The notes under the pieces were generated by a model that saw only the letters and a list, made by a program, of their open reading frames with translations, was not told where the DNA came from and ran no database searches. A stretch of 64,000 bases of DNA, taken from assembly GCA_010356995.1 (NCBI GenBank), contig ML996696.1:498364-562363 (forward strand). The letters run 5' to 3'. Numbering within the stretch: position 1 is the stretch's first letter; each line of letters opens with the position of its first letter. Of the stretch, positions 9,775 to 51,192 are shown piece after piece. The position numbers were made by a program, and so were the translations under genes. The stretch comes from Trichodelitschia bisporula. Its lineage: Eukaryota.

Positions 9775-12700
9775 GTGGCTCCTCCAAAGAGCACCGTAAC
9801 GCCGGGTTACATCTGGTGTCCCTATTGCGGCAACCAGTTTGGCCGGGCGGAGCACTTGGAACGGCACCTGTTAACACGTAGGGGACCTCCGCTAACCTCT
9901 CCGATGCTTTCATGGATACTAACGCTTCGGTAGATACCAACGTCAAGCCATTCAAGTGTTCCCTATGTCATATGTCCTTTGCCCGAAAGTAGGTTGATAC
10001 CATGGCCTGCTGCCCGTACGAGTGCTTATGTTGCTGCAGGGATCTTCGTCAACGGCACCTCAACACCATCCACTCCAACTGCGAGGACACATCCTCATCG
10101 GGTAACGTAAATGCCATGATGAAAACGACCGAACGGAATGCCATCGCATGCGAAAATTGTGCCCGAACTAAGACGAAGTGTGACAAATCTTTCCCGTGCT
10201 CGAGGTGCGAAGCCAAGGGCCTATCGTGTCGAGTTCGTGCTGCAAGGCGAAAGAGCAAGATTGCAAAGCGTGAAGAGCAAAATCATCAGCAACTGCTGAA
10301 CGGCGTCCAACCGGCATCTTCCAATTCGTCACAAGAAGCTTTGCCGAAGGGCGCGGAGGGGTCTCCGCAGCAGTTGCCTCCTGACACGTTCCCAGAGGAG
10401 TACGGCGGCAGCCAATTTCAGTCTCCCAGTTCCAGGTCATCAACGGTCATACTGACTCCAAGGCGGGGAACGGTTGCCAGCAATCCGGAGGAAGTCATGG
10501 TAGCAACGGCTGCCATGACTGGCCCTCTCAACTATACTCCAATGCTCGACCAGCAAATGGGTCCATGGTCATCACCGCAGGCTCAATTCGCCCAACAACA
10601 GCCCCAACCCTTCAATCCTATCGCAAGACCGGACGCAACAATGGCTCCGGGGATGACGGGGTCAATGGGTCCCTTTTTCGAGGCCGAGCGACAAATGGTT
10701 CCCGCCCTGTTCTCGGGCTACAGCCTGGGCAGCAATCCCTCTCTTCAACTTCATACGCCACTGAACACGCCTCCTCTTGCGTCTCCAAACTTCGATGGCA
10801 TCCATCATAGTCCATGGCCTTTGGCTAACGATTCCGCGTATTATTCTGGTGGTGTGGACCATGTCGTCGAGGACAACTCGCCTGACATGGATGCCTCGGG
10901 CAGTACTGAATTGACCCCGACCCCGACTGTTCGTGCGTATGATGGTTGGAACAGTTTCTGTTGCCACAGATTCATCTCCCCAGCCGATTGCCCGAGTACA
11001 GCTCAGTACAATCTTTCGAGTCTCCAGCAATTGCTGCAGGATAAGGGTTTCTGGGAGACTTGGAAGCTGCAGTGCCCGGATGCTGACCTGTCGAATTCCC
11101 AATTGAAAGTGGCACCATTGCAAGAAGACGCTCGAGACATCTTGTTTGCCGTTACGCAAAAGTCGTTTCGCACCGCCTCGAAACGGAGGAAAGATGGCAA
11201 TGTTGATGCAGGCTCCTCGACTGATCTCAAATTTGCTCCCCTTCCGCCAGCCCGAGTCCTGGAAAGGTTTTTGGAGCTGTATGCGGCCAAAGTTGAACGG
11301 CATTTTCCCATGACGCCTTTGGGCTGCCTTGACATCAATCGGCTGCTGAATCGTGCACCCAACAGCGAGCTGGCCAGTATTCTCGTCTTGCTGATGGTGG
11401 CCACCGGCGCTCTAGCGACTCAAAGCATCGACGCACGCTTGCTGAGCTGTGGCCTGACCGAGGCGAGTCGCGTTTGCCTCCGAAGCGTCATCGAGAAGGA
11501 CATCCGTCTCGCCAGGAGCCCAATGACTCACCATGCCGGTCTTCTTTTCATCATGTCGGCAGCGTGGAGCGGTGATAAGTGGCTGATGGACATTGCAATT
11601 GGACAAAGAGGCATGTACCTTGCCATGATGAGAGACACCAGGGTTCCAGAGTCTACTGCAGTGTCTGCGGAACCTATGTCGAGGTTGTCATGGGAGCACT
11701 GGCTGCGGCAGGAAGAGTCGAGCAGGCTGACATATTCGTGGTGCATTCTCGACCTTGAATTGGCGCTGTTCCACGACCAACAGCCCTTGATGACGCTCGA
11801 CGACTTCGTTGTACCGATGCCAACTGACGACAGTTTGTGGGAAGCGACGACTGAGCAGCAGTGGGGGGAAGCTTCCGAACGAGCTTACCCCGCAGGCAAC
11901 GACTGGCCACCGTCTCTTGGTGACCTTTTCGCGACCTTGAAGGAGGCACCCCACAGGATCCGTGGTGAAAGGTTAACCCTCCTCCAACTTCGCCTTTTGC
12001 TCCACCCCATTCTGTCGGAGGTAGGACAGTACAGGTCGTATTTGCGTGGCCTTCAGTCTCATGAATCTGGATCTGCTCGCCAGCGCTGCAGTGAAGTTCA
12101 GACGTTGCTCTCTCAATGGAATACACTCGCGGCACAGCACATCGAGGCGCGCGGTTCAAGTTGTGCGATACAATCGACTCTGGCTCTCTTCCAGCTCATT
12201 AGCCTGGCTGTCGTATCTGACATCAAGGCCATCGAAAAGTTTTCGCGCAGACCCCACCAGCTCAAGCCGTCCCGCTGCCTTGATCATGAGGAGCTCGCTG
12301 TCGTCCATGCATGCCAGGTTTTGCGACATATACGCCTGGTAACGCCATCACTCCGTCCACATTGGTGGGCAGCCGCTGTGTACCGAGCATCGATGACCAT
12401 CTGGTTCTGGACGTACATGCTGCCATCAAAGGTCGAAGCACCGACGTCACCGTCGGGCCGCTTCATGCTTGACAAGGCTCATATGGGTGAAGCCGAAGTG
12501 CAGCACTTTCTCCATTCCAAGGCTGGTGGTCCGATGATTGCACGGCAGGATGGCGTTGTTATCGAAGTGGATACTCCTCCATTGGCGCTGGGGGTTGGTG
12601 TTGAGATTCTTGATGAGGGATTCTTGAATACCTTTGGTGACGGTATCAGATTCAAGTTGGTTAGTATGACAAAGGAATTCCGAGGGGCGCCTGAGCGACT

Positions 12701-12788
12701 AACATCCACTCAGGATCGGTTCCATCAGGAACAGCAACGTATCCACGTGGGAATCGGCCGGCCGCGTGAGGTTGAGGCATGGGAATAA
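9775..12788 (+). CDS. CMR1: Melanin pathway transcription factor, Cmr1/Pig1/Amr1 type (2 C2H2 fingers + Zn2Cys6 + fungal TF domain); start codon uncertain
   Basis: Removing introns 9878-9933 and 9989-10039 gives CPYCGNQFGRAEHLERHLLTHTNVKPFKCSLCHMSFARKDLRQRHLNTIH, then CENCARTKTKCDKSFPCSRCEAKGLSC and WSGDKWLMDIAIGQRGMY. Sits next to a THN reductase. Start placed at GTG 9775 by inference. Confidence 0.92.
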
Positions 12789-15700: not shown

Positions 15701-18034
15701 TGAAGGATGCAGAATGGCAGAAGGCCTACGATCCGTAGTGAACATTGAGCGGAGGCAGAGCTGGCGCGGACGTCGGACGTTGGACGTTGATTTCTTTTCG
15801 GAGTCGGACGTGGGGAAAAGTGCCGGTACCGGGGGCCTAGCGTGCCAAGACGGGAGGTACGACCGGGTCAAAGCTTGGCATTCCGTGTCCCCCAGCCTCC
15901 TCCGCTTGTGTGGGGGAAAAAGAGAGTATTCGGACCGCAGTGGGGACCGCATTCCCCCGCTGTCTTCTGCTCAACCCTCACTACCAAAAACTGACCTTCG
16001 GCATCATCCCGACTCTCTCTCAGTCCGCGGCCGCAATGCACGGCTGAAACATGGTATATCAACATCCTCCCTCACTAGTGTGGAATATAGAATTTTCCCC
16101 AATTCGTTGCTGCGTGAAACATTTTGTGCCTGGAAACCGGCCTTGATGGCGGGGGGGAGGGGGGGGGGGTAAGGCGCACGAGCCTGGGGATTACGGATGG
16201 CGGCAACTTTAGCGCTGGTCTGAGGAGCGGGTGCCTGACGCCGGGTTTGATGGATGCATGTCAATGCCGCTTTGGCCAATGCAGGCCCGACCGATGCGCC
16301 ATGGACTCCGTTTGCCAGTCCCGCCCAAGGACTACATCCGTAAGGGACGCTGAATTTGACGAGCAAAGTACATCCGTACTGTACATTAACGACCGTCCTG
16401 GAGTCAGCGCAGTCTCCCTCTCTGTACGACAACACCGCGAGGCTGAGCGGCAGTCTGCCGCCGAGTCAACAGAAAATCACGGATGGATTGCGCCCAAGCG
16501 GAGCGCGTGTGAGCTCAATCAATATTATTCCGAGTCGTTGATGCAGCCGTGGCAACTCGCCACACTTGGGCCTCGGTCTCTTGATCTAGCGTCGCAAGCA
16601 CTGAATGCGGCATAAAGACATCAAGACAACAACTGCATACCGTAGATATCGCGAATGGGAAATCTTGGCATCCGAGCGCCTTCAGTGGAGACATTTCGGG
16701 GTTGATGTTGTGTTGTGCTTATTGCACCGTCACAGCCTCGCGGGCCCCAGCCACCCCCTCATCAGGCCGCCCCTCAATCAACCCCCCACCAAAAGCGGGA
16801 ATCGTGAGGCAACTTAAAATAGTTCAAGCATGGTTACACAGCATCCCTCCAGAATCAATCACCTCAAATGTTAGTCTGAGCCTTTCTGAAGCCATTTTCA
16901 GCTTCAGAATCAAGCGCTGTTCTTGCTGGCCGATCTTTTTACTCAAAACTGCTGCGCCCCTGAGTTATTAGCCCCGGTCTCGTCTAGTCTCATCGCTTTC
17001 CAGGCACCCAGGGTCCTCTCCTTCTGAGGCCCGGATGTAGGCCCCGCCTCTACCCCTCCACCTCCACCTCCGTATCTCCAATACAACATGTCCGAATCTT
17101 TATTGTTTTGCGGCTGTGGGACTAGGATATGTAGGTGGCCGTGGCATCGGCGGCCTGACGAGGCGCTGCTTATTTGCCTTCGTTGACCGCGGGTGATGGA
17201 TAAGCTGAAGGATGGAGTACATCGGATAGTTTGGATTTCCGAAGAACTTGGGAGTTGGTTCGACTCTGGTGCCGATTGCCGTTGCTTTGACTTTGACACG
17301 CTGCGCTGGCCCACCGAGATGGAACACCTGGAACAGACCTTTCTCCACCATCCAAGAAAGCTTTGACCGGTGCTGTCGTGCGCTGCTGGTACTGGGCCTG
17401 TCTCGAAAGTGGGTGCATGGCTGGATCGCAGTCTGCTTCGAAACCCCCTGCTCCTCTCCAAGATGCACTGCCTGCGGTGATAGGGCTGCAAGCCTTGTGT
17501 GCGCGCATTCGCCAGAGCAGAGACTCTAACCTTGTCTCCTGGACTGGTGAGGATGCGCCACAGCCATCGTCTGGCCTCCCATCCGCCGTCTTGCGGTGGA
17601 GCCGCTCTCCCTGTCGGTTTCTTGCCTTTCTTTCTCATTCCATCTCACCTCCAGCTTGATAGACCCCGGTTACAAGCCTGCCCAAACTTATGCGGGTAAC
17701 TGAAGTCAGAGTGTCTAGAGCCCCAGCCAATGCGGCGACACGCCCGTCCCTTCATCTTGGCTTGAGCGGTCGTTCTGAACGAAAATAGAGCGAGCCTATC
17801 GCCGAACCACTACTGTGCGGACTTAGTGGGGCCGCAGGTAAGCCGTACACGCCGCCAACCTGCAGTTCCGCCTCAATGCCTCCTGATTGATGGTGGGGTG
17901 GGGCGCACCGCGGGGCGGTTGCGAGGGCGGAGGTGAGGGGTGGGAGGGGGGCTTGTGCATCCAGCGCAGAGTCCATGCTTTTGCAGAAGGGGGTCCTTTT
18001 CTTCGAACTGGGCAAAGGGTGAGAATCGTAAAGG

Positions 18035-18040
18035 TATATA
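18035..18040 (+). promoter_or_regulatory. Probable TATA box of the reductase gene
   Basis: TATATA about 135 nt upstream of ATG 18173, followed by a CT-rich leader. Confidence 0.5.
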
Positions 18041-18172
18041 GTCCCCCGTCAGTCCCGCCTTCAGCCTTCCTTATCCCATCATCCAATCTTCCAGTCTTCC
18101 AATCTTCAGCTTGCTTTATACCCTCCATTTGTTTCACTTACTTCCAAATCCTACATCTATACCTCCATCATA

Positions 18173-19113
18173 ATGTCCGCCAACACCAACACCTGGAGCC
18201 TGGAGGGCAAGAACGCCGTCGTCACTGGCTCTGGCCGTGGCATTGGCAAGGAGATGGCTCTGGAGCTCGCCCGCCGCGGCGCCAACGTTGTCGTCAACTA
18301 CGCCAACAGCTCCGAAGCCGCTGAGAAGGTGGTCCAGGAGATCAAGGCTATGGGCCGGGACGCCATTTCCGTCAAGGCCAACGTTGCCGATGTGTCCCAG
18401 ACCGTGAAGCTGTTCGAGGAGGCCAAGAAGCACTTCGGCACCCTGCACATCGTTTGCTCCAACTCCGGCGTCGTCTCCTTCGGCCACTTCAAGGATGTGA
18501 CCGAGGAGGAGTTCGACCGTGTCTTCGCAATCAACACCCGCGGCCAGTTCTTCGTGGCCCGCGAGGCCTACAAGAACCTCGAGGTTGGTGGCCGCATCAT
18601 TCTCATGGGCTCCATCACGGGCCAGGCCAAGGGTGTCCCCAAGCACGCTGTCTACTCCGGCTCCAAGGGCGCCATCGAGACCTTTGTGCGTTGCATGGCG
18701 ATCGGTGAGCTACCCAGTCTCTAACCTTCCGCCAATTGGAAGCAATTCTCGCAGAAGTGCAGTTGAGCTAACGTTGGTCCCTAATCAGACAGCGGTGACA
18801 AGAAGATCACCGTCAACTGCGTCGCGCCCGGCGGCATCAAGACCGACATGTACCATGCCGTCTGCAAGGAGTACATCCCCGGAGGCGACAAGATGGACAA
18901 CGACCAGGTCGACGAGTATGCCGCGACTTGGTCCCCGCACAACCGCGTTGGGCAGCCCATCGATGTTGCCCGCGTTGTTGCTTTCCTCGCGTCGCAGGAC
19001 GGCGAGTGGGTCAACGGCAAGGTCATTGGTAAGTCAAGCCATATCTCCTGCACGCAGACACTTTCGAGCTAACCTGCAAAACCACAGGCATTGATGGCGC
19101 CGCCTGCATGTAA
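18173..19113 (+). CDS. BRN1: 1,3,8-trihydroxynaphthalene reductase (3HNR/THR1/BRN1), short-chain dehydrogenase of DHN-melanin synthesis
   Basis: [32 protein letters not shown] catalytic motif, [12 protein letters not shown]-terminal IGIDGAACM. Introns 18705-18788 and 19029-19087. Confidence 0.95.
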
Positions 19114-20894
19114 ATCTCTCGAGCTGGACGATTCTCTGGGGGCACTAGGGCAGCAGAGGTCAGGGATGCTTGCGCATACGACATTGCTTGTTTAATGGCC
19201 ACCCCACCCACCACCACTCCATCCACCTCAACACCTCCCCCGACGCTGTTTGTTTTGTATTTGATATTTGCATTGTGGTCACGCATTGTTATGGTTGAGC
19301 ATGTCGTACGGGACGAAGGTCGGAACCTCTTAACTAAAGGTTAGTTAGAGAAGGCAATGGGAATCTAAAATAAGCCGGTCGCCGGTGTGAAATTACTCTC
19401 TCACCATCGCTTGCCCACAGTGCCCCATCAGCCGAGATGTGCGCACTTTTCACCTTGCCTTTCCTGATGTTCGCTGCTCCAGAGTGTGTGTTGCATGCCG
19501 ATGACAGGTCAGACGCGTCCCAGGACTTCGGCATGCCACAAGCCATGTCTAGCGTGCAGAGGTGAGGTTAAAATATGAGTCAGGTTGGAGTATGCAGGTG
19601 CCGCTTCTTGCATGCGGCATACATTCTGAGCTACGTGGCGGTCTGCGTGAACCCTGAGGTGCTACGCCCAGACGCTTGAGTGCAACTAGAATCGGCGGTC
19701 CACCATCTTCGTTACGACAGTATGTAACTGATGGAAAAGGTAGTTGGGACACATGTCAAGAACGTCTGGCCTGGAGGACTGACACGTCAGTTCTATGAAT
19801 CAGGACAACTGGAGATCTGGTGGTTCCGATGGAAGACCTCTCAAAAACGAACTCCCTTGGTATGCCAGTTTCAGAAAATGCAAACATGCGGTGGGCAGCA
19901 ACGCGCCAGCGCCAAAACGTGACATGAAATGCGTTCCGTAGTCCAGACTTTCCCAAGCTGAAGCGGTGAGGTTGAACTCAGCTTCGCATATCCGGCATTT
20001 TCTTTTTCCTTGCCCGTGCTGTACCGATACAGTGAGAACATCCTGTCACCCCATGACCTCAGAAAGAGCTTCCCACCAGCCATTTCAACTCCGTTCTTCA
20101 CTGTTGAATACATATCAAGCACGGCATACTGGAGACAAATGTACTTCGAAATGGTGGACGTTGCTGATGAAGGCTACTCCTCTTCTTTAGGTCTACCGCG
20201 CAGCGCTCAAATCCTAGGCCCGCATTTTATTCCACTGAGGCTAGTACGTCAGGCCCGCATATTCGGAGAAACCTCAAAGCTCTGCACAGCTGCAAAGAAT
20301 AGCGCCAATCATGTTGACCCGGATACATCATCCAATCGGGGATATTTCAGTTTCTTGGTGCCTTATTCTGGTTCTCCTCTAACTGTAGTCAAGACTTTTC
20401 ATTTTTAAATGCTTTGATGAGATCGAGGAGCATGCTACTGGTATCGGGTGCCTGTATTGAGACGTTCAAGTTGAATCCCTTGAGCTCAGCGGGAAGAGCC
20501 TTCATTTCTTTGAGCTTGACTACCGATGCATAGGCGCAAGTTGTGAGGAAGAGCTCGTCGAGATCATCGATGACACCATGACAAGGAATTAGCAAGACGT
20601 CAAGCCAGGTACCCCATGGGTGCTTCACAGAAGTAGCCGGCCGATAGGTAACGTCCGCAGATGACAGTATTCGTGATGAAAGGAGACCATATCGTCTATG
20701 TGTATCAGGGGCCACACGTTGGTAGATCAGCAGTCACCACCACATTCATTTCCGCAGACCTAGCATATGATATCGCCATAGACGCGCGTGTAGGATGACC
20801 GCAACGAACCCATAGTCTTCTTTCAGGAAGAAAAACCACCTCCTTTCAAACGCCGGGCACCGATTCCAACGCCGAAGACAGCCGTATGAATACA

Positions 20895-21597
20895 CTAGTA
20901 GCCGCGACCACGACCACGCCCTCCCCTCGGAGCAAAACCCCCACGGCCTCCGCTGCTGAAGCCGCCTCCGCGGGAGAAACCACCTCCACGGCCACCACGA
21001 CCTCTAGGCGCACCACGACCACCACCCCGTCCGCCGCGACCACCACCACGCATGGGCCCGCCGCGCGACGCTCCTCCAATCCGCTTGGGTTTCGGCTGGC
21101 CCGGCAGCGGCTTCGGCTTCGGCAGGAACTTCTCCAGGGGAAGCAACTTGTCGGTACCGATGAAGAATTTATCGCCGGATTTGAACGAGGAGGCTACAAT
21201 GCCATCCTGAGGCTTGATCGTGAAGAAGACTTGGTTGACGGGTCCTAGAATCTCATCCACTTTTCCAATCGGCGACTGGGGCTCGTCAGTGTTTGCGCGC
21301 AACTCCGGCCAGGGGCTCTGCCGACCTTGTTTTCGAGGAAGATCGGAGCATTGAAGTATGGTATCTTAGGGTTGACCGACTCGCAGACGAGTTCTCCTTC
21401 GCAAGCGTGTACAAATTTGCCGAGCTCGACAACGGCAGCTGGAGGGCCGGTCTGCTGGAAGCCGCCACGGCCTATGCCAAAATATTAGCCTCTGTGAGCA
21501 ACACAATCAAGATTCATTGGAGCCTACCCCCGCGATTTCCGAAACCCCCAAAGTTCGCACCGGTACCGCGACCGCGACCACCGCCTCGGAATGACAT
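20895..21597 (-). CDS. GAR1: H/ACA snoRNP subunit Gar1
   Basis: MSFRGGGRG start, RGG-rich termini, core PYFNAPI / [20 protein letters not shown] / [13 protein letters not shown]. Two short introns. Confidence 0.95.
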
Positions 21598-22673
21598 TGT
21601 GATTGTTGTGGTTGTGGCTTGGGGACTTGGGTCGTGATCCGTCAGTACTTCTTGAGCTCCGAAAATTTCAAAGCTTTCCCTCCAGACTGGGGTCAGTTTT
21701 CGGAAAAACTTTAATCCTCCCGATGAAGAGCCGCAACTCCAATCAGAAAGTCCAACGATGCCCCACACGGGCACCCACGACACGGTAGGTGCAATAATGG
21801 AGAGCTCCACACAAAGGGTATCAACGTGGAGTCAAGGCTTTCGACTACAGGACAACTTCACCTCCGTCATTTCATTTCCTGAATAGGTTCCCGCAATAAC
21901 TAACCTTAGCTGCTAGGGTAACCATAGTTTATTTATCGTCCCGCATCGCTGCGAATACTCTTCCCTGGGTCGGTACGCTTATCATTGTGTGCCCCTGTTT
22001 CCTTGCTGGCCTGCTATCCAATAATTACTACAGGAATCCTACCCGTTGTTGACGACATGCGCCGGCAAGCATCGTCCTTTCGACCATGGGGCAGCCGAAG
22101 CACGGCATTCATCTACACGTGACAGTTCCCTATAGTCAAACCCCGCATTCGGCGTTGAACTCTCCTCGATCATCTTTTCATGTCATACTGTATTCAAGGC
22201 CCCGAACCGACAAAGGCGCTTCCAGTTTTAGGTTCAGCCATAGGAGTTTCCTGAAGCTGGACGTCCAAGGTCGAGGGTCATATGTGCTTAGCCGTTGCTG
22301 ACGCCGTGTTTCCCGATAGTACCGCTGAATCTTCTTATCTGCCGGCATGTAATGGTGAGGCTGGATGAATTTGCACATATCTGAGTTATGAGGGAGACTG
22401 CATTGTTCTAACCTTCTTTGATTTTAAGGACATGAAAGCAATATCGGAAATCTTTTAGAGATCTGCTCTTTTGGTATACTGCGCCGGCATTCCTTCCATA
22501 ATTGTTTTTGACTCAAGTCCGCTGCTACATGCAAAACCCAGTACCAGTGGGCCATCCGGTTCCTTACCCCGGCCATATCAAGTCTATTGGCAGCTATTTG
22601 AAGGGCATTTCAGGCCCCTAAAGCAGCGCTAAGTCAACACCTAGTTAAGCTTCTCATCTTCCTCGGTATCAAA

Positions 22674-25600
22674 ATGAACATCTTCATCAGTTCCATTCCC
22701 TGTCAAGCCACGCAAGAGCAGCTCGGGAACTTCCTTGCGAATTCACTACTCGGGATCGTCGGTATTCCACCCACGAAATACGACTATTTCAAGCCGAAGA
22801 ACAAGGGGATTGCATTTCTCCACATCCAAGACGAAAAACAGGGAATCAAGTTTCTCACTGCGGTCCGCTTCCTCACCGTGGCATTCCCCGGGCTTCGACA
22901 CCCAGTTCGAATCAAAAAGGACGATTTTCAAGATAATGGGTCCAGAATCAGAGGGATAAAAGAGGAAGCCGCTCTTGCGGCCAAAATGGAGGGTAAGCCT
23001 TGTTTTGTTCGTCAACATTATATTGTAAAAGTGACTCAGATGCAGGCCTGACTGTCAAAACTGCCGACGGCAAATCCATCTTATATTCGCCGTCCCGGCC
23101 TCCCAGCTCCCAGTTTATCAGATATACGCCCGCATGGATAAATAATACAAGGACCTTTGACACCTTCAATCTTCATTGCGGCACCTGGGAATACGAGTGC
23201 GAATCTTGGGGATTCCGTCCCTTCTACAAGGACGAGAGGAGGGGAAAGTTGCTCCTCGGAAAATCTGTCGCCACGATCCTGCTCTATCGGGATTACATGG
23301 AAGTTGAGTGGGAGCATCGTCTTGACTTCCAATACACCAATATCGACGGGATCATTACCGCACGCGGTGCCATTGCGTTCAATTGCTTGAACTCACCAAA
23401 GGTTTTCCGACTCACCGAACCGGCGGAGCTACCAGGAAGCTTCAGTCCCCGACGAAATGACCCGGGGCGTACAAAAGCTCGATCGCCGGGCATCAATTCC
23501 GAACATGCTGCCATTGCGGGGTGTTGTCTCACCTATGTCATATCGCTCTTTAGCGCCAAGGAGACGAATGCGCTCAAGGGACTCCTGGCGACTGGCAAGG
23601 AAATACCCTCTACAATGTCCTACGCGATTTTGCGGCGCCCCATGAAGTCGTTTGAAGATGGTTTCACGGTCCTAGATTGTGCTCTTTCCGATGATGGAGG
23701 TGCATTCGCTAGCATGCCTTACATCGTACGATTCCAAGCACTCAGATTCGCGACGAATGGCAAAATGGGCCCTTGGATGGTCCTCGACATGGTATGCATG
23801 CTTCACCGCCTTCTTAAATCTGGAATAAGCCCCAAAGGATGCGCAGAAGTCCTCCGATACCTCTTCCTCGATCTGAAGCACCCTGCTCCCGATGTCCAGC
23901 CTTCGGATTTCAACATGGACAGAATTTGAAGCGTGATTGTTAACGTTGCCACCTCGCATGCTGAGCGGACGTCTCCGTACGTTCTTGCTCAAAGGCACGA
24001 TCACCTTGTCCTCGTTCACCGGGTAGTGCTGACGCCGGCGGGGTTTTTCCTTGCAGGCCCCGAGGCAGAATCAGGAAACAGAGCGGTAAGATCGTACGTG
24101 GATCGTGTTGAAACTTTCCTCTGGGTGTCGTTCACGGATGAGAACGGTGATCGGTTAGGCATGGATTTTGGTGCAACACTGGATGACATCCACGAGCGTA
24201 TCCGTAAGAGTTTGATCAGTGGACTGCAGGTCTGTGGCAACCTATTCCGATTTCTGGGATTTTCTTCTTCATCCCTCAAGACCTAAAGCGCCTGGTTCAT
24301 GGCGGACTTCCGTACAACATCAGGAGAACTTGTGACTCCCAAGCGAGTCATACGACGCCTCGGAGACTTCGCATCAATCCGCTGTCCTGCAAAGTGTGCT
24401 GCTCAGATTGGCCAGGCATTTACCGACACCAGAAGTTGCGTTGTTGAATTCGAAGAAATGATCAGAGCAAAGGATGTAGAAAGGGATGGGCGAGTGTTCA
24501 GTGACGGTTGTGGGACAATTTCACCTAGTCTTGTCAAGAAGACGGTGGCAAAGTATCCGCACTTGAAGCCAGGCCAGGTCGTTATATTCCAAACCAGATA
24601 CAAAGGCAAGTCGGACTGTAGCGCTTAGATTGTGAGCTAACGACCCTGGGATATTAGGTGCCAAAGGTGTTGTGTCTCTCGACCCCGCACTGGAAGGTGA
24701 TGTTCTCACAATACGAGATTCAATGTGGAAATTCGAGTCCGATGCAACAGAACTCGAAGTTTGTGGGATGGCTGACAAGCCTCTCCCTTTGTTTCTGAAC
24801 CAGCAGACGATCAAGTTGCTGGAAGACCTGGGGGTGCCGCACCCGAACTTTATGGAAGTCCAGGTCGAGGAAATCAGTGTTTTGCAGAAGTCAGTGTCCT
24901 CTCCAGTCCATGCCGCTCTATTTTTTGAGAAGGAGATTGGAGATCAAGCTGGCTTCTCTGGTCTAATTCGCCGCTTGAGTGGCATGGGCCTCGATGTGTC
25001 TCAAGACAGATTCCTGGGGGGTTGATCGAGATGGCAGTTTTCTCAAGATTAAGGGACATGAAATATCGTGGGCGTATTCGCGTTCGAAACGGGGTTAAGC
25101 TCTTTGGCATCATGGATGAGACTGGTTGGCTGAAAGAGGGAGAGGCTTACATTTGCTGGCATTCGGAAACCGGGCGGACTGTCTTGGAGCAGACGGCCGC
25201 GGTCACCAGATCACCCATGATGCACCCTGGTGATCTCCAGCTCGTGAAGGCGGTTCGCCTTCCGGCAGACTCGCCACTCCACGCTCTCCATAACTGCATC
25301 GCATTTTCTCAGAACGGACGATGCCCCTTGCCTAACCAACTGGGAGGCGGAGGTATGCGACCCGAGAGGAGGGAATAACACTCCACATGCTGACATATGT
25401 TCTAGACCTGGATGGCGACCTTTACGACGTGAAATACGACGCACGACTCATTCCATTGACCACTTTTAAGGCTTCGGAATACCCAAAGATGAAGCCCATC
25501 GACATTGGCCGAAAAGTGAAGATTGAGGACCTGGCCAATTAGTTTGTCGAATACATGAAGAACGATACTGTCGGCCTCCTTTCAGTGCTGCACCTGGTGT

Positions 25601-26518
25601 TGTCCGATCAGCGCGAGCGTGGGACCCAGGACCCCGACTGCATACAGCTCGCAGAAATGGTTTCGACTGCTCTCGATTACTGCAAAACTGGAATCAAGGT
25701 ATTCTTCAACCTCAAACAGTTTTTCATCGAAACTGAACCGTTTACAGGTGGACATGAGCAAACTCCCACGGTTTGATAGAAAACTACGGCCGGATTTTCT
25801 CGCACCGAGTCCCAGGGTCAGAATTCACAAGCAGGATGCCACGATTGAGATGTACAAGATTGAAGATGAGCTTAGCGATCCGGTTAAAGTCCTTGACCCT
25901 GAGACTCGACCGACGCAGTTCTACGAGACCCAAAACGTCAACGGGAAGCTCTACAGGAAGATCGACGACAGGGCGTTCTCCGAGAACATGAAAAGGCAAT
26001 CCCATGCCTCCGGCAGCCTTGAAAGCTCGGCGTTGCTGGAAGAAGCTTTGGACCACGTGCTACGGGCAATGAAGGGGATCCAGTGGGAAAACTACGGCAT
26101 ATTCGCCCAAGACGTGAAAAGAGTGTACGAGCGAAACCTGATGGATACGTTGTACACATGCTCTCTTAACAGCGCTCACATGATGCATGAGATAGAGATG
26201 GTTACCGGTTTCCTGTTGGGGATAATCAAGGGGAAGCAGAGGGGGGAGCAAGTGGCCAACATGCGTAGGCGGTTCAGCGAAGACGTGCAGTATACACGTG
26301 ACCACATCAGAATGGGGAACGATGGCGACACCTCGGAGGCACTCCCGAGAAGCATCGCTTGCTTCCATCTTGCCATGCAGGAGCCTGGTCGGGATATGGG
26401 TAAAGAGGGCCGGCTCCTATCATGGAAGTATGTGGCCGCAGCGGTTTGTCTCGAAGAGCTTGAAAAGTTTCCGGGCCCACTGCTGGAGCAAACCAGACGG
26501 GCTAGAAAGGCGGAGTAG
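22674..26518 (+). pseudogene. RNA-dependent RNA polymerase (cellular RNAi RdRP with RRM-like N-terminus), full length but disrupted
   Basis: Motifs FLGFSSSSL, CPAKCAAQIGQAFT, FSDGCGTIS, RYKGAKG, GIMDETGWL, VTRSPMMHPGDLQ, GGGDLDGDLY, DYCKTG, RPDFL. Introns 22993-23045, 24606-24657 (GC-AG), 25353-25405, 25699-25747. In-frame stops TGA 23927, TAA 24284, TAG 25540, and a 1-nt frameshift at the G6 run 25016-25021. Confidence 0.9.
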
Positions 26519-26873
26519 TGTGCTTGAAGATGACTCCAACATATGATTTTGGATATTTCGGGTTTGGTGTCGTAGCAAGTGCGGCTCCCATATACTTATG
26601 AAATATCAGATTGATGTTAGTCTTGATTCAGACGAGTTGTAGTGGCTGTAATTACAGTAGGTGAAGGTGCCCTTGGTCCCAGGGCGTTAACGCTTGACGC
26701 TCTGTGAGATGTCCACTTGTGAGGCTTGGCAGGTACGGCGGCTTTGCCTTGTCGACTGCCACCTCCGGCCCCATCCAGCTCCATCATCTGCAACACCATC
26801 GCCACGCACCTTCAGTCCCCTTTACACACACCCGCAACCCAGCTACTAATATCAAACCTGTGCTCTGGGCGAA

Positions 26874-28239
26874 ATGGCTGAAGTCGAGAATCCCATCAAC
26901 ACCGTCCCGCCACACAAGAAACCTCTCCCGTCTTCCATACCAAATGTGGAGTCGCTAGAGGGCTTTGCGACCGAGGGCAACGACGACTATTCCACCTTCA
27001 AAAAGCTCCAGAGACAGCTTGAGTACATTCAGCTCCAGGAGGAATATATCAAAGATGAACAGAGGTGCTTTGCGCTGCCTGGTAGATGACCCCAAGGGCC
27101 CCAGTACTAACATCGCCGGTAGGAATCTTAAGAGAGAGCTTGTTCGGGCTCAGGAGGAAATAAAACGCATCCAGAGCGTGCCTCTGGTCATCGGCCAGTT
27201 CATGGAGGCCATCGATCAGAAGTATGGCCGTCATACTCGATGTTAAACTTATGCTAACCACTGATGCAGCACCGGTATCGTCCAGTCTTCGACTGGCTCC
27301 AACTACGTCGTGCGCATCCTTTCCACGCTCGATCGTGAACTCCTCAAGCCTTCTTCCTCTGTTGCGCTCCACCGCCACTCTAACGCGCTCGTCGATATTC
27401 TCCCCCCCGAAGCCGATAGTTCTATCGCCATGCTCGGAGCCGATGAGAAGCCGGACGTGACGTACGCTGACGTCGGTGGGCTGGACATGCAGAAGCAGGA
27501 GATCCGGGAGGCTGTCGAGCTGCCGCTGACGCACTTCGACCTCTATAAGCAGATCGGCATCGACCCCCCGCGTGGCGTGCTGCTGTACGGACCTCCGGGC
27601 ACGGGCAAGACTATGCTGGTCAAGGCTGTGGCCAACAGCACGACTGCCAGCTTCATCCGCGTCGTCGGCTCAGAGTTCGTTCAGAAGTATCTCGGTGAAG
27701 GTCCGCGTATGGTCCGCGACGTGTTCCGCATGGCGCGCGAAAACTCACCAGCCATCATCTTCATCGACGAAATCGACGCCATCGCCACCAAGCGCTTCGA
27801 CGCGCAAACCGGCGCTGACCGCGAAGTCCAGCGTATCCTGCTGGAGCTGCTCAACCAGATGGACGGCTTCGACCAGACGAGCAACGTCAAGGTCATCATG
27901 GCTACCAACCGTGCCGACACCCTCGACCCCGCTTTATTGCGTCCTGGGCGCTTGGATCGCAAAATCGAGTTCCCATCCTTGCGTGATCGTCGTGAGCGGC
28001 GCCTCATCTTCGGCACCATCGCCTCGAAGATGAGCTTATCGCCTGAGGTGGACCTGGACTCCCTGATCGTCCGCAACGACCCGCTGTCCGGCGCGGTCAT
28101 AGCGGCCATCATGCAGGAAGCTGGGTTGCGTGCCGTGCGCAAGAACCGATACAACATCATACAGGCGGATCTGGAGGAGGCGTACACAGCCCAGGTCAAG
28201 GGTGCAGCCGAGGCGGACAAGTACGACTTCTACCGGTGA
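26874..28239 (+). CDS. RPT3: 26S proteasome regulatory AAA-ATPase subunit 6B
   Basis: [30 protein letters not shown] Walker A, IIFIDEID Walker [17 protein letters not shown]. Two introns near 27064 and 27222. Confidence 0.97.
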
Positions 28240-29048
28240 AAGGCCGGGGCTGCGGGTAGAAGCCTGCTCGTCTGGAATGCTGTTTCTGTAGCATAATACG
28301 GCGCCTTGGGTTGTGGCTTTGAGAGGGCAGTGGAGCGGGTTTTAGATACCACATTCATTTAACAACTGCACTCATTGCATCCTACGACTTGACAAGTGGT
28401 ATCGTGCAAGGTATTCTACAGTTGGATACTTCTATCAAAGGCGCAAGACCATTCATACACTCTCCAAGGTCTCTGAAGGAGATCGGACGACGCTAGTGGC
28501 TACAAATATAGGGTACACCCACTTCTCAACGTACACGAGAGCAGTAAGCACGCAAAGCAGTACGGTGGAAATGACAGTTAATGGAAATGGAACCGGCAGT
28601 GGTGTCTATGCTCATGTCTCTTTCTTCCGCTTACGTCATATGGCAGAGTGCAGTAACATGCAATTACGAGAAATGAACAGAGAAAAGAGAGCAAATGAAA
28701 AGCAAAGCGGACACCCGTTCACGCCACAACCACGTTTCTAGTTCACGCCGTGGTATAATGCACCCAACCCGTTGCGACAAACCCACACACGCACGCACAC
28801 TAAACTGACATAGTCTTGACAAGGGACTGGTGGAGACGGGATCGAGCCGAAGAACCCTCGGCCCGGCAAAGGGCGGGTGGGATGACTGAGCGGTGTGATT
28901 CCCCTGGTGGTATTCTGCAAGAAAGGGAACAGCAAAGAACGCACAAAGAAACCCATGCACTACAGTTACACAAGCGGGGGAGAACCCGCGGCGCGATAAT
29001 CGATCTTCAGACAAAGTGAAGAAACAGGCAATGCTCCTCTTGCCGATG

Positions 29049-41573: not shown

Positions 41574-44212
41574 ATGTGCGGTCGGTTGCTGCTTTTGAAC
41601 TCCCTCTACCTCGCAGTTGAGGCATCCTATCTCACCAACCCGATCAATTCAACAGGGGGTTATCGATATGTTGATCCTCTTATTGGGACTGCTGCTGGCG
41701 GTACAATGCAGCATCCATACGTTGTCAAGTGCTGATCGGAATAGGGCATGTGTTCCCCGGCGCCACACTCCCGTTCGGCATGGCGAAGGCGGTAGCAGAC
41801 GTCTTTGGTGACAATCAGGGAGGGTACGCAACCGATGGTGGTGGGGTGTTCGGGTTTTCTCACATGCATGATTCAGGTCAGCTTTCAGAGTCCAGTGCTC
41901 TTCCACTTAGCAAAGCTAATAACTTCCAGGGACTGGTGGGGTAAGCAATTGGTCCATCTCCAAATCAGTCCGTGGTTATCCGTATGGGACTGGAAGCCTT
42001 TCGCTCAGCCTACCATGCCACATCTGACACCTGCGGCAGTCTCCTTCACTGGGCAACTTTCCGATATTCCCTCATGCTGGCTGTCCCGAGGACAATATCA
42101 ACAACTGTCCGCTGCGAAAAGAAGACCGGGTCGCTGCTGTAGAGCAAGGGACCGTTCAGGCGCGTCCGGGGTATTTCGCCCTCAACATCTCGAATGGGGT
42201 GTTTTCAGAGATAACTGTGTCCAATCGGACGGCATTGTATCGCTTCACGTACCCGGAGGTTCCTCCTCTGGGCGGTCCGCTTAGTCCATTCTTCGTGATA
42301 GAGCTTGCAGATTTGCCCACCACTCGACTTGACGGAGCAATCACTGTTGATGGCACCACCGGAAGGGTCACGGGAAACGGGACGTTCAAACCGAGCTTCG
42401 GTATCGGCACCTATACTCTGCATTTCTGCGCAGACTTTTCTGGGGCTCCGATTCGAGACAATGGTGTTTGGATGAACAACCGGGCTGGGAGCAAACCCAA
42501 GACCATGAAAGTTGTGACGGATGGCGTAAATGGGAACAATTCGCCGCCGCTGTCCGCAGGAGCTTGGGTTAGGCTTAAGGCGCCCACAGGGAAGAGGCAG
42601 GTGGTTGTGCGGGTCGGCATGAGTTTCATGAGCACCCAACAGGCGTGCCAAAACGCGGAGCGCGAGATTCCCGCCTTCAGCTTCGACAAGACGCTTAGCA
42701 TTGCCGAAGATACATGGAAGGACAAGCTGAGTGTTGTGGAAATCAAGTCCGGCGGAGTTGAAACTGGGCTCCTTAGGACCCTCTGGAGTGGAATCTACAG
42801 GAGCATGATCAGCCCACAGGATTACACAGGAGAAAATCCACTGTGGAAGAGCAATGAGCCATACTATGACTCCTACTACTGCATCTGGGATTCTTTCAGA
42901 AGCATCCATCAGCTCATCACACTTCTCGACCCGCACTCGCAAACTCTCATGGTGCGGAGCTTGATTGACATTTACCGCCACGAGGGAAAGTTACCAGACT
43001 GCCGAATGTCATTATGCAAAGGCTTCACGCAAGGCGGATCGAACGCTGACACGCTGCTCGTGGACTCCTGGCTGAAGAACATTTCCGCGGAAGTCGATTG
43101 GGAAACTGCCTACAAGGCCATGATCTCGGATGCGGAAGAGGAGCCTCTGAATTGGGCTGTTGAAGGTCGCGGGGGCTTAGAAAGCTGGAAGACTCTGGGT
43201 TACATTCCGCAGGACGACTTCGATCCTTACGGCGCCGGGCCCTTTACTCGCAGCGTGTCCCGAACCGTGGAGTATGCGTACAACGACTTCAACATTGCGA
43301 CCATGGCCAAAATGACAGGCCGACTTGCAGATTACGAAAAGTACATCAAGCGCTCACACAACTGGAAGAACCTGTTCAAGCAAGACCAAACCTCTACGCT
43401 GCGGGATATAAATACTAATTTCACCGGCTTCTTGCAGCCTCGTTATGATAATGGTACTTGGGCATATCAGGACCCATCTGTCTGCTCGTTGGAGAATGAC
43501 TTTGACGGCTGTTATTTGAACCCTACAGGCAAAGAGACGTATGAAGGAAGCCCATGGCTCTACACTCTCTTCGTTCCTGGTATGTATATCGGAAAGTGCA
43601 GTATAGTAGGCTAACAGCCCAGGCGATATGGCTGCACTGATCCAAACCTTGGGCGGACCCGCTTCTTTTGTTGATCGCCTGGACTATTATCACAACACGC
43701 AGCTCGCTTACATTGGCGACGAGCAAGCCTTCCTCATGGTTTTCCTCTACCACTACGCAGGTCGACCAGGGCTCTCCTCAAAGCGGGCGCACTACTACAT
43801 CCCACGGAAGTTTTTCGATAAGCCAGAGGGCTTGCCTGGTAATGACGACAGTGGTGCTATGGGAAGCTTCGCTGCTTTGACTATGCTGGGGATTTTCCCG
43901 AATGCTGGGCAAAATGTTTATTTCATCACGCCGCCGTTCTTCGAGGAGGTCAGTATCATAAGCAGAGTGACCGGAAAGAAGGCCACGATACGAAACATCA
44001 ACTTTGACGCAGCGTATAAGAACATCTACGTCCAGGCAGCGACATTGGACAGGCGACCGTACACGAAGAGCTGGATAGACCACACTTTCTTTTTGAGAGG
44101 AGGCTTACTGGAGCTGACGCTGGGTGCGAACGAGAGCAGATGGGGGACGCAACCTGCAGACTTGCCTCCTAGTTTGTCTACATCAGGTTTCGCAGATAGG
44201 ACTGTAATTTGA
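41574..44212 (+). CDS. Secreted glycoside hydrolase family 92 (alpha-1,2-mannosidase-like)
   Basis: Signal-peptide-like MCGRLLLLNSLYLAVEA, YVDPLIGT, GHVFPGATLPFGM, HMHDSGTGG, WDSFRS, TQGGSNAD, SRTVEYAYNDF, GLPGNDDSGAMGS. Confidence 0.93.
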
Positions 44213-49322: not shown

Positions 49323-51192
49323 ATGTCGTTTGGTGGACAGACCCCCACCATCGTGGTCCTGAGGGAAGGTCCGTGACCCCGCGGGGTTGATATCACTTCT
49401 TCATCGTACCGAACCTGACTCCGCAATAGGCACCGATCAGTCCCAAGGCCGCGGTCAAGTTTTGTCCAACATAAATGCTTGCCTTGCAGTCCAGTCAACC
49501 GTTAAGGGTACGCTCGGACCCTACGGGGGAGATCTGCTGCTCGTAGACGAAAATGGCCGGCAGACTATCACTAATGACGGCGCTACCGTGATGAAGGTAT
49601 GCGACCTGCTGCAGCCCCGTCTGCGTGCTTACCCAAATAGCTTCTCGACATCGTTCACCCCGCCGCCCGCATCCTGACTGATATTGCCCGCTCACAAGAC
49701 GCTGAAGTCGGAGACGGCACGACGTCGGTAGTAGTTATAGCTGGCGAGATACTTAGGGAGATCAAGGAGCATGTGGAACAAGGAGTCAGCAGCCAAGTTA
49801 TCATCAAGGGCCTGCGGCGGGCTTCAACCATGGCCGTCAACAAGATAAGAGAGATTGCAGTCAACACCGCGGAGGCAAACCAGCGCGACACACTTCTCAA
49901 GCTCGCAGCCACAGCCATGAGCAGCAAGCTGATACATCGCAACGCAGATTTCTTCACTAAGATGGTAGTCGATGCGGTCCTGACGCTTGACCAAGAGGAC
50001 ATAAATGAGGGTCTCATCGGGGTTAAGAAGATCACCGGCGGCGCTCTCCAGGACTCCCTATTCGTCAACGGTGTTGCCTTCAAGAAGACTTTCTCCTATG
50101 CGGGTTTTGAGCAGCAACCCAAGTCTTTCACAAATCCGAAAATCGTCTGCTTGAACGTGGAACTTGAGCTCAAGAGCGAGAAGGACAATGCCGAGGTGCG
50201 CGTGGAGCAGGTATCGGAATACCAGGCTATTGTGGACGCCGAGTGGAAGATTATCTACGACAAGATGGAAGCGTGCTTCAAGACTGGCGCATCCGTTGTC
50301 CTCAGCAAGCTCCCGATCGGAGACTTGGCCACACAGTGAGTTATTCTTTACACCAGTCAGTTATATACTCATGCAGGCAGATACTTCGCCGATCGCAACG
50401 TCTTCTGCGCTGGTCGTCTTGCTTCTGACGACATGGAGCGCGTGTGCCTCGCCACGGGAGCTAAAGTCCAGTCTACTTGTTCCGATATCCGCGAGGAACA
50501 CCTGGGTACTTGCGCTGTATTCGAGGAGCGTCAAATTGGCGGCGAGCGGTTCAATTTCTTCGAAGGGTGTCCGGCAGCGCAGACCTGCACTCTAGTGCTT
50601 CGTGGCGGAGCTGAACAGTTTATCGCCGAAGTTGAGCGCAGTCTGCACGACGCAATCATGATCGTTAAGCGAGCGATTAAGAATCGCAGTATTGTAGCAG
50701 GCGGTGGTGCTTGCGAGATGGAGATCTCAGCATACCTCCATGGCTACGCTGACGAGAAGGTGCCGCACAAGCAGCAGACTATCATTAAGTCTTTTGCCAA
50801 GGCCCTTGAGGTCATTCCGCGCCAGCTGTGCGACAATGCTGGCTTTGACTCCACGGATATCCTCAACCGGCTGCGCGTCGAGCATAGAAAGGGGAACAGG
50901 TGGGCTGGCGTTGACTTTGTCGGCCAGGGTGTCGCGAACAACATGGAGAAGTTCGTATGGGAGCCGGCGCTTGTCAAGATCAATGCCCTCCAGGCGGCGA
51001 CTGAAGCAGCATGCTTGATTCTGAGTGTAGATGAAACGATAAGTAAGTCTTCAGTCCAGAGTTTTGTGGTATTACTGACGCCGTGCAGAAAATCAGGAGT
51101 CGCAGCAGCCGCAAGGCCCCCAGCGGGGCTTGCCGCCTGGTGCTGCGCAGCGTGCTTTGCGTGGTCGCGGACGCGGTATGCCGCGTAGGTAG
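49323..51192 (+). CDS. CCT7: T-complex protein 1 subunit eta (CCT chaperonin)
   Basis: [57 protein letters not shown], ends GRGRGMPRR*. Four introns. Confidence 0.96.

Follow-up and report, generated by a model that had tools for sequence, protein, structure and literature searches.

A probable unitary pseudogene of an RRP-3-class RNA-dependent RNA polymerase in Trichodelitschia bisporula

Trichodelitschia bisporula is a dothideomycete (order Phaeotrichales) that lives on dung. Its genome contains a gene for a eukaryotic cellular RNA-dependent RNA polymerase (RdRP) whose reading frame is broken in four places. The gene occupies positions 22674-26518 on the plus strand of the 64,000-nucleotide stretch analysed here, referred to as the window (GenBank assembly GCA_010356995.1, contig ML996696.1, positions 498,364 to 562,363 of the forward strand). 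It is probably a unitary pseudogene, namely the presumed single copy of an RRP-3-class RdRP standing at its putative ancestral locus, with four introns and the gene structure retained. The four lesions had been listed in an earlier note drawn from the letters of the window, and all of them were confirmed in the sequence:

23927..23929, plus strand: lesion 1, in-frame TGA at residue 401 (DRI*SV), in the variable linker that joins the PH-like domain to the RdRP domain
24284..24286, plus strand: lesion 2, in-frame TAA at residue 520 (SSLKT*SAWF), inside the conserved FLGFSxSSLxxxxWF block
25016..25021, plus strand: lesion 3, a run of six G (G6) with one base lost, at residue 747; the frame shifts between L (25014-25016) and G (25019-25021)
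25540..25542, plus strand: lesion 4, in-frame TAG at residue 904 (DLAN*FVEYM), in the conserved D(I/M)xxFFxxFM block

At the G6 run the frame passes from the open reading frame (ORF) 24636..25025 to the ORF 24929..25378. The query positions of the tblastn matches step from 697 to 699 at this break, with exactly one residue absent. Translation from the first ATG can yield at most an N-terminal piece of 400 residues, which lacks the polymerase domain, and the three stops together with the frameshift mean that no full-length polymerase can be made.

The ORF fragments had been proposed to join into one gene, and two lines of evidence bear this out. Six fragments tile the RdRP profile PF05183 (positions 1-84, 87-198, 196-319, 322-434, 435-482, and 485-538 of 582) without loss across the breaks; five of them match with E-values of 4.1e-31 to 1.6e-13, and the fragment with the catalytic DLDGD scores 19.6 bits, under the 23.8-bit cut-off by itself. 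Three intact homologues, from Venturia inaequalis (P0003), Lepidopterella (P0004), and Pseudovirgaria (P0008), are colinear with the locus across every lesion in tblastn, from about residue 109-127 to 11-18 residues short of the query C-termini. The profile match and the DxDGD loop of eukaryotic cellular RdRPs are thus both present and the uninterrupted full-length frame is absent, the three stops and the one -1 frameshift standing in its way. The locus is best described as a relic of the PF05183 family, not a working member.

The gene model read from the sequence contains five exons and four introns:

22674..22992, plus strand: exon 1, with the start ATG and the RRM-like N-terminal module MNIFISSIP...KGIAFLHIQ; used as exon 1 in the annotated protein P0165
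22993..23045, plus strand: intron 1, 53 nt, GTAAGC...CAG; its junction MEG|LTVK agrees with the annotated model P0165
23046..24605, plus strand: exon 2, with the PH-like domain (~23150-23623), the inter-domain linker, and the first ~198 RdRP profile positions; two stops lie inside
24606..24657, plus strand: intron 2, 52 nt, non-canonical GC-AG, GCAAGT...GCTAAC...TAG
24658..25352, plus strand: exon 3, the central stretch of the RdRP domain, with the frameshift and an altered RDLPS motif; base 25352 opens the first D codon of DLDGD
25353..25405, plus strand: intron 3, 53 nt, phase 1, GTATGC...GCTGAC...TAG; splits the first D codon of DLDGD
25406..25698, plus strand: exon 4, with DLDGD (25352 + 25406-25419) and then a conserved block; the third stop lies inside
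25699..25747, plus strand: intron 4, 49 nt, GTATTC...CAG
25748..26518, plus strand: exon 5, the C-terminal region, with no stop before the final TAG at 26516-26518 (ORF 25559..26518)

The earlier note was also right about the splicing. The introns add up to 207 nt (53+52+53+49), their coordinates were confirmed, and the spliced length of 3638 nt is one base under 1213 codons. The splice sites look intact, three being GT-AG and one GC-AG. The GC-AG junction of intron 2 is the sole one at which the frame and the alignment with homologues are both preserved (YKG|AKGVV), and it is also used in the annotated fragment P0219; its GC donor could belong to a working GC-AG intron or be a fifth, subtle lesion (GT>GC). 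Upstream of the RdRP domain the PH-like domain matches PH_fung_RdRP (Pfam PF25358) with an E-value of 3.1e-25. The RRM-like character of exon 1 follows from its alignment with the N-termini of intact homologues and from a PF00076 match in one of these (P0342); a Pfam search with exon 1 alone, at E-values up to 1, did not match RRM.

To place the lesions relative to intact proteins, a conceptual translation with X at each break was aligned against 26 homologues. All four lesions fall in aligned columns, and at no site does the Trichodelitschia gene have extra length, so that splicing out any of them would remove homologous residues. For the TAA, the TAG, and the frameshift, the residues at risk from splicing lie in strongly conserved blocks; the TGA lies in the variable linker. 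The stop columns were also read in 53 homologues. The TGA column holds mostly I, L, or T, and R in a single homologue (1/53); the TAA column holds Q in 28/53 and H in 16/53; the TAG column is F in 48/53, H in 4/53, both sister sequences of the order Venturiales (Venturia and Tothia) among them, and S in 1/53. Tryptophan occurs at none of the three columns (0/53 each).

These columns speak to the possibility that the gene is functional and its lesions are bypassed in RNA, through extra introns, read-through of the stops, or sexual-stage adenosine-to-inosine (A-to-I) editing of stops to tryptophan. Editing of premature stops to tryptophan is known from work on Sordariomycetes. The TAG and the TGA could each be converted to TGG by a single A-to-I edit, and the unusual GC-AG intron in an annotated fragment may hint at transcript support. 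Rescue by editing would call for TAG or TGA stops at tryptophan columns in a frame otherwise undamaged, whereas here tryptophan is missing from every stop column, the TAA requires two edits, and the -1 frameshift is not editable; extra introns would delete homologous residues, as no site has length to spare. A bypass in RNA is thus extremely unlikely.

The stop columns also bear on how the stops arose. For the TAA, CAA>TAA is well supported as the simplest origin, given the column of mostly Q. The TAG would be at least two steps from either the F or the H state of its column. The suggestion that TAA and TGA each arose by one C-to-T step from a sense codon is backed by the homologues for TAA (Q in 28/53) but not for TGA, where R is found in only 1/53.

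A targeted C-to-T process such as repeat-induced point mutation (RIP), for example after a transient duplication, was considered as the source of the damage. A single C-to-T step leads from the majority Q codon to the TAA, and 4 or 5 of the 11 changes private to the Trichodelitschia gene at conserved columns (see below) are possible as single C>T or G>A transitions, namely R466W, R560Q, R849C, S853N, and possibly L716F. The GC content of the gene, 0.516, is within the lowest 7% of gene-sized windows (window mean 0.534). RIP-mutated sequence is expected at a TpA/ApT ratio above about 0.89 and a (CpA+TpG)/(ApC+GpT) ratio below about 1.03. The gene shows 0.50 (in the lowest 3% of the window) and 1.28, respectively, with a CpG observed/expected ratio of 0.93; these indices are far from RIP values and carry no RIP signature. 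There is no repeat or AT-rich block nearby, and plain transition-biased mutation accounts for the same few changes and is enough for what is observed. RIP or a similar process is accordingly a very improbable source of the lesions.

Public annotation reflects the broken state of the locus. An exhaustive HMMER search of 1.84 billion representative proteins with the N-terminal half as query returned 1948 hits, only two of which are close: P0165 (364 aa) and P0219 (224 aa), both 99% identical to the query, with the next best at 40%. Their NCBI accessions are adjacent, and the names given to them are 'hypothetical protein' and 'RdRP-domain-containing protein'. P0165 ends before the TGA with a 9-residue out-of-frame tail from a modelled intron at 23792-23846, and P0219 begins at the first Met past the TAA and stops at the stop created by the frameshift. 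The existence of these two fragments and nothing else at close range indicates that the lesions are in the deposited assembly, that the annotation pipeline worked around them, and that no close intact paralogue is annotated; among the 1.84 billion representatives there is no protein between 40% and 99% identity. The 55-nt intron modelled in P0165 (23792-23846) is coding in homologues and leads to a stop at 23874-23876; it may be a device of the gene caller or a real cryptic splice.

Could the four lesions be errors of the deposited sequence, the gene being intact in the organism? One lesion does lie in a homopolymer (G6). The assembly, however, was made from Illumina HiSeq reads with AllPaths-LG (supplementary table 5 of PMC7082219) and is not a long-read assembly prone to homopolymer errors, and three of the four lesions are substitutions. 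With such an assembly, three substitution errors plus an error in a short homopolymer within one gene are very unlikely. In addition, all four lesions are in one 3.8-kb gene and none was found in the other genes checked in the 64-kb window, and missense changes at near-invariant sites of the same gene fit a real relaxation of constraint. We therefore judge an assembly or sequencing artefact highly unlikely, and infer that the lesions are real in the organism.

The catalytic region is preserved in part. DLDGD, encoded by 25352 + 25406-25419, matches DLDGD in 15/15 homologues displayed. The motif directly before the catalytic loop (25322..25336, plus strand) is R-D-L-P-S in homologues and C-P-L-P-N in the Trichodelitschia gene; R-D is kept in 15/15 of the homologues displayed and S in 14/15 (one has N, as in the Trichodelitschia gene), both Venturiales sisters have RDLPS, and every fungal RRP-3 homologue shown has either R-D-L-P-S or R-D-L-P-N. 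Two further changes hit near-invariant arginines, R466W (in FLRV) and R560Q (in CAARIGQ). The claim that the catalytic core and the other RdRP motifs are undamaged thus stands for DLDGD but not for the rest, since R466W, R560Q, and RDLPS>CPLPN alter near-invariant sites. The single plant-type RDR alignment shown has R-P-H-P-N at the RDLPS motif. The P and N states thus exist elsewhere in the superfamily, and the arginine lost from the C-P-L-P-N motif is retained in the plant-type sequence.

The extent of decay beyond the four lesions is small. Measured from the node common to both Venturiales, the branch length of the Trichodelitschia gene is 1.010, compared with 1.011 for Venturia and 0.826 for Tothia. 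At 192 columns that are ≥85% conserved in 50 other homologues, it has 11 private departures, against 19 on the path to Venturia and 12 on that to Tothia; at 105 columns conserved to ≥95% it has 8 versus 6 (Venturia) and 4 (Tothia). Its codon-position GC of 0.56/0.41/0.59 is still gene-like and similar to that of neighbouring genes. There is no measurable rate acceleration, which indicates constraint during almost the entire history since the split from Venturiales.

The number of stops gives a rough age. A random point mutation in the coding sequence creates a stop with a frequency of 0.031-0.038 (transition/transversion weights 4 to 1), so that three stops correspond to about 78-98 substitutions, or a divergence (d) of ~0.021-0.027. 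The age of the lesions would thus be about 2% neutral divergence, an estimate from three events for which the Poisson 95% interval of 0.62-8.77 events gives d of roughly 0.004-0.08. The loss had been called recent, and in relative terms this is fair: there is no acceleration, and the decay is slight against a long constrained history. At the protein level, the closest intact relative has only 36-40% identity. A 771-residue POM152 ORF in the window matches a named T. bisporula protein at 100% identity, and the next relatives (Venturia, Verruconis, and others) reach only 50-57%, which indicates that the Trichodelitschia lineage is isolated among sequenced fungi.

The course of events may be pictured as follows. 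An RRP-3-class gene with the full architecture (RRM-like N-terminus, PH-like domain, RdRP domain with DLDGD, four short introns) would have evolved under purifying selection almost throughout the period after the lineage parted from Venturiales. Constraint would then have been lost and a handful of ordinary point mutations accumulated. The resulting damage would comprise three nonsense codons, one base deleted by slippage within a G run, and a few missense changes at near-invariant sites (R466W, R560Q, RDLPS>CPLPN). We infer that the loss was neutral because RRP-3 is dispensable.

The class of the gene, which the earlier note had left to an RdRP tree, was read from a FastTree phylogeny of 64 sequences, the root being placed on two animal RdRPs. 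The label was reached with the Microsporum member P0012 as query, which led to the Coccidioides cluster with P0362 = UniRef100_E9D8K1; this C. posadasii entry is listed under RRP-3 in Table 3 of PMC4861493 (Qian et al.). The clade containing both E9D8K1 and the Trichodelitschia gene comprises 41/64 tips, with a Shimodaira-Hasegawa-like (SH-like) support of 0.987. Within it the Trichodelitschia gene is sister to Venturia + Tothia (support 0.979), in agreement with the expected species relationship, and in a homologue search with 43 hits each named species is present once. Structures of plant-type RDRs match the segment ahead of the catalytic loop with E-values of 3.2e-11 to 8.3e-8, and QDE-1 structures do so more weakly (6.9e-6 to 8.7e-5). 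The gene is taken to be of the RRP-3 class, not QDE-1, on a tree without labelled SAD-1 or QDE-1 sequences. A second route to the label, through Magnaporthiopsis poae, was abandoned when its current accession A0A0C4E499 could not be matched to the older identifiers in Table 3 of PMC4861493. An Onygenales RRP-3 query returned 55 hits that included Paecilomyces and Elaphomyces and no Aspergillus or Penicillium, a gap that may stem from the limits of a word-indexed search and not from true absence.

Like Neurospora crassa RRP-3 and its orthologues, with which it shares a clade through E9D8K1, the gene has ~1212 codons, the PH_fung_RdRP + RdRP architecture, and the DLDGD loop. It differs from them in a frame broken four times and in several altered near-invariant residues; N. 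crassa RRP-3 itself lies outside the alignment. N. crassa QDE-1 (PDB 2J7N) and the plant RDR2-type enzymes (PDB 7EU0, 7ROZ) belong to the same superfamily and match the segment before the catalytic loop, but the plant-type entries do so with E-values of 3.2e-11 and 7.7e-8, and QDE-1 weakly, at 6.9e-6.

Some points weigh against reading the locus as an RRP-3 pseudogene of the species. Only one genome of T. bisporula is covered, and the damage could be confined to the culture that was sequenced. The excess of private departures at the most invariant columns (8 versus 6 and 4) is small and not significant. The age is derived from three events, with the wide interval given above. Finally, the class call is based on one accession match and tree shape, labelled SAD-1 and QDE-1 sequences being absent from the tree.

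The biology of the class changes what the loss may mean. N. crassa RRP-3 has no known function and is strongly induced by double-stranded RNA and viruses, and QDE-1 and SAD-1, like RRP-3, are dispensable for antiviral RNA interference (RNAi) in that fungus (PMC7648066). The earlier note had tied the gene to quelling, meiotic silencing, and antiviral RNAi, and had proposed that this lineage or strain may be losing a silencing branch. Neither idea finds support under the class assignment: no such role is shown for RRP-3 in the available text of PMC7648066 and PMC4182546, and without a demonstrated silencing role the loss of a 'silencing branch' does not follow.

A close parallel is rdr4 of Cryphonectria parasitica, likewise of the RRP-3 class. 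Its authors call it a non-functional RdRP pseudogene, with premature stops, and it is nevertheless virus-induced (PMC4182546). Its products lack DXDGD and come from alternatively spliced transcripts, whereas the Trichodelitschia gene still encodes DLDGD and carries point lesions; the expression of rdr4 was measured, and the Trichodelitschia gene is known here from sequence alone. C. parasitica belongs to the Sordariomycetes and T. bisporula to the Dothideomycetes, and the two losses are thus independent.

The example of rdr4 also lends some weight to another reading, in which the polymerase half decays but the 400-residue RRM-like + PH-like piece continues to be produced and used. All four lesions come after residue 400, with the first stop placed exactly in the linker between the domains, and rdr4, an RRP-3 orthologue without an intact RdRP domain, is induced ~20-30-fold by virus (PMC4182546, PMC7648066). 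The placement of the lesions is not significant, however, as four random lesions would all fall in the last two thirds with a chance of ~0.2, (812/1212)^4. A truncation with retained function is improbable. More generally, by analogy with rdr4, it is a faint possibility that RRP-3 genes have a polymerase-independent job in the N-terminal RRM-like + PH-like module. If so, rdr4 and the Trichodelitschia gene, in unrelated fungi, would both have shed the catalytic half and kept an expressed, possibly stress- or virus-inducible N-terminal protein.

For the unitary pseudogene that we favour, other losses offer comparisons. RRP-3 is absent in 3/37 Ascomycota, Penicillium chrysogenum, P. digitatum, and Claviceps purpurea (PMC4861493). 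The same class has been lost there, but these are reported absences, and the Trichodelitschia relic is readable end to end, at an early stage of loss. Silencing genes have likewise become pseudogenes in Aspergillus nidulans, with a truncated Dicer and Argonaute (cited in PMC4182546), and RNAi genes are reported to have decayed in Cryptococcus deuterogattii (PMC4778953, PMC8022950). In both of these several pathway members are hit, whereas the Trichodelitschia comparison covers one gene. No published description of this pseudogene was found, and of ten papers that mention T. bisporula none, as judged by titles and abstract openings, has RNA silencing as a topic. What is new here is an independently arisen, well-preserved RRP-3 pseudogene; the decay of RRP-3 itself was already known.

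The following features were located in the neighbourhood of the gene:

9993-12788: Zn2Cys6 transcription factor ORF
18032-18724, plus strand: short-chain dehydrogenase, matching trihydroxynaphthalene reductase structures (Magnaporthe 1DOH/1YBV, E 5.9e-81)
20895-21365, minus strand: GAR1
27265-28239, plus strand: proteasomal AAA ATPase

Other housekeeping-type neighbours in the window are PIP5K, MBOAT, GH92, a CCT chaperonin subunit, and POM152. The window genes examined carry no in-frame lesion, as the statement that the neighbours are undamaged had implied. Two places resemble damage at first sight. In the CCT chaperonin gene (50335-50378) a TGA between two same-frame ORFs falls inside a GTGAGT...CAG intron and is no lesion, and in the GH92 glycosidase gene (43580-43623) a 44-nt intron, GTATGT...GCTAAC...CAG, mimics a frameshift between ORFs 42028..43614 and 43610..44212. 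The reductase match points to at least one dihydroxynaphthalene (DHN)-melanin gene ~4 kb upstream of the RdRP. The description of the RdRP as lying beside a melanin locus holds for this one trihydroxynaphthalene reductase orthologue, but nothing beyond it was confirmed, and no polyketide synthase was seen in the 64-kb window. On the strand opposite the RdRP gene, five antisense ORFs of 102-140 aa have no Pfam match; no Rfam family was found in 21000-28000, and no repeat or transposon family in 20000-29000. A 27-nt inverted pair within the RdRP coding region (24777-24803 / 25122-25148, 74% complementary, 318 nt apart) is probably due to chance.

Among the three classes of RdRP in filamentous ascomycetes, least is understood about RRP-3. 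An early-stage pseudogene in a free-living dung saprobe would add one more data point to the view that the class is dispensable and repeatedly lost, and a relic readable end to end may serve as a marker with which to date the loss when sequences of other Phaeotrichaceae become available. Since pieces of the locus are annotated as separate proteins, one of them named for the RdRP domain, surveys of gene content could count a working RdRP in T. bisporula that does not exist.

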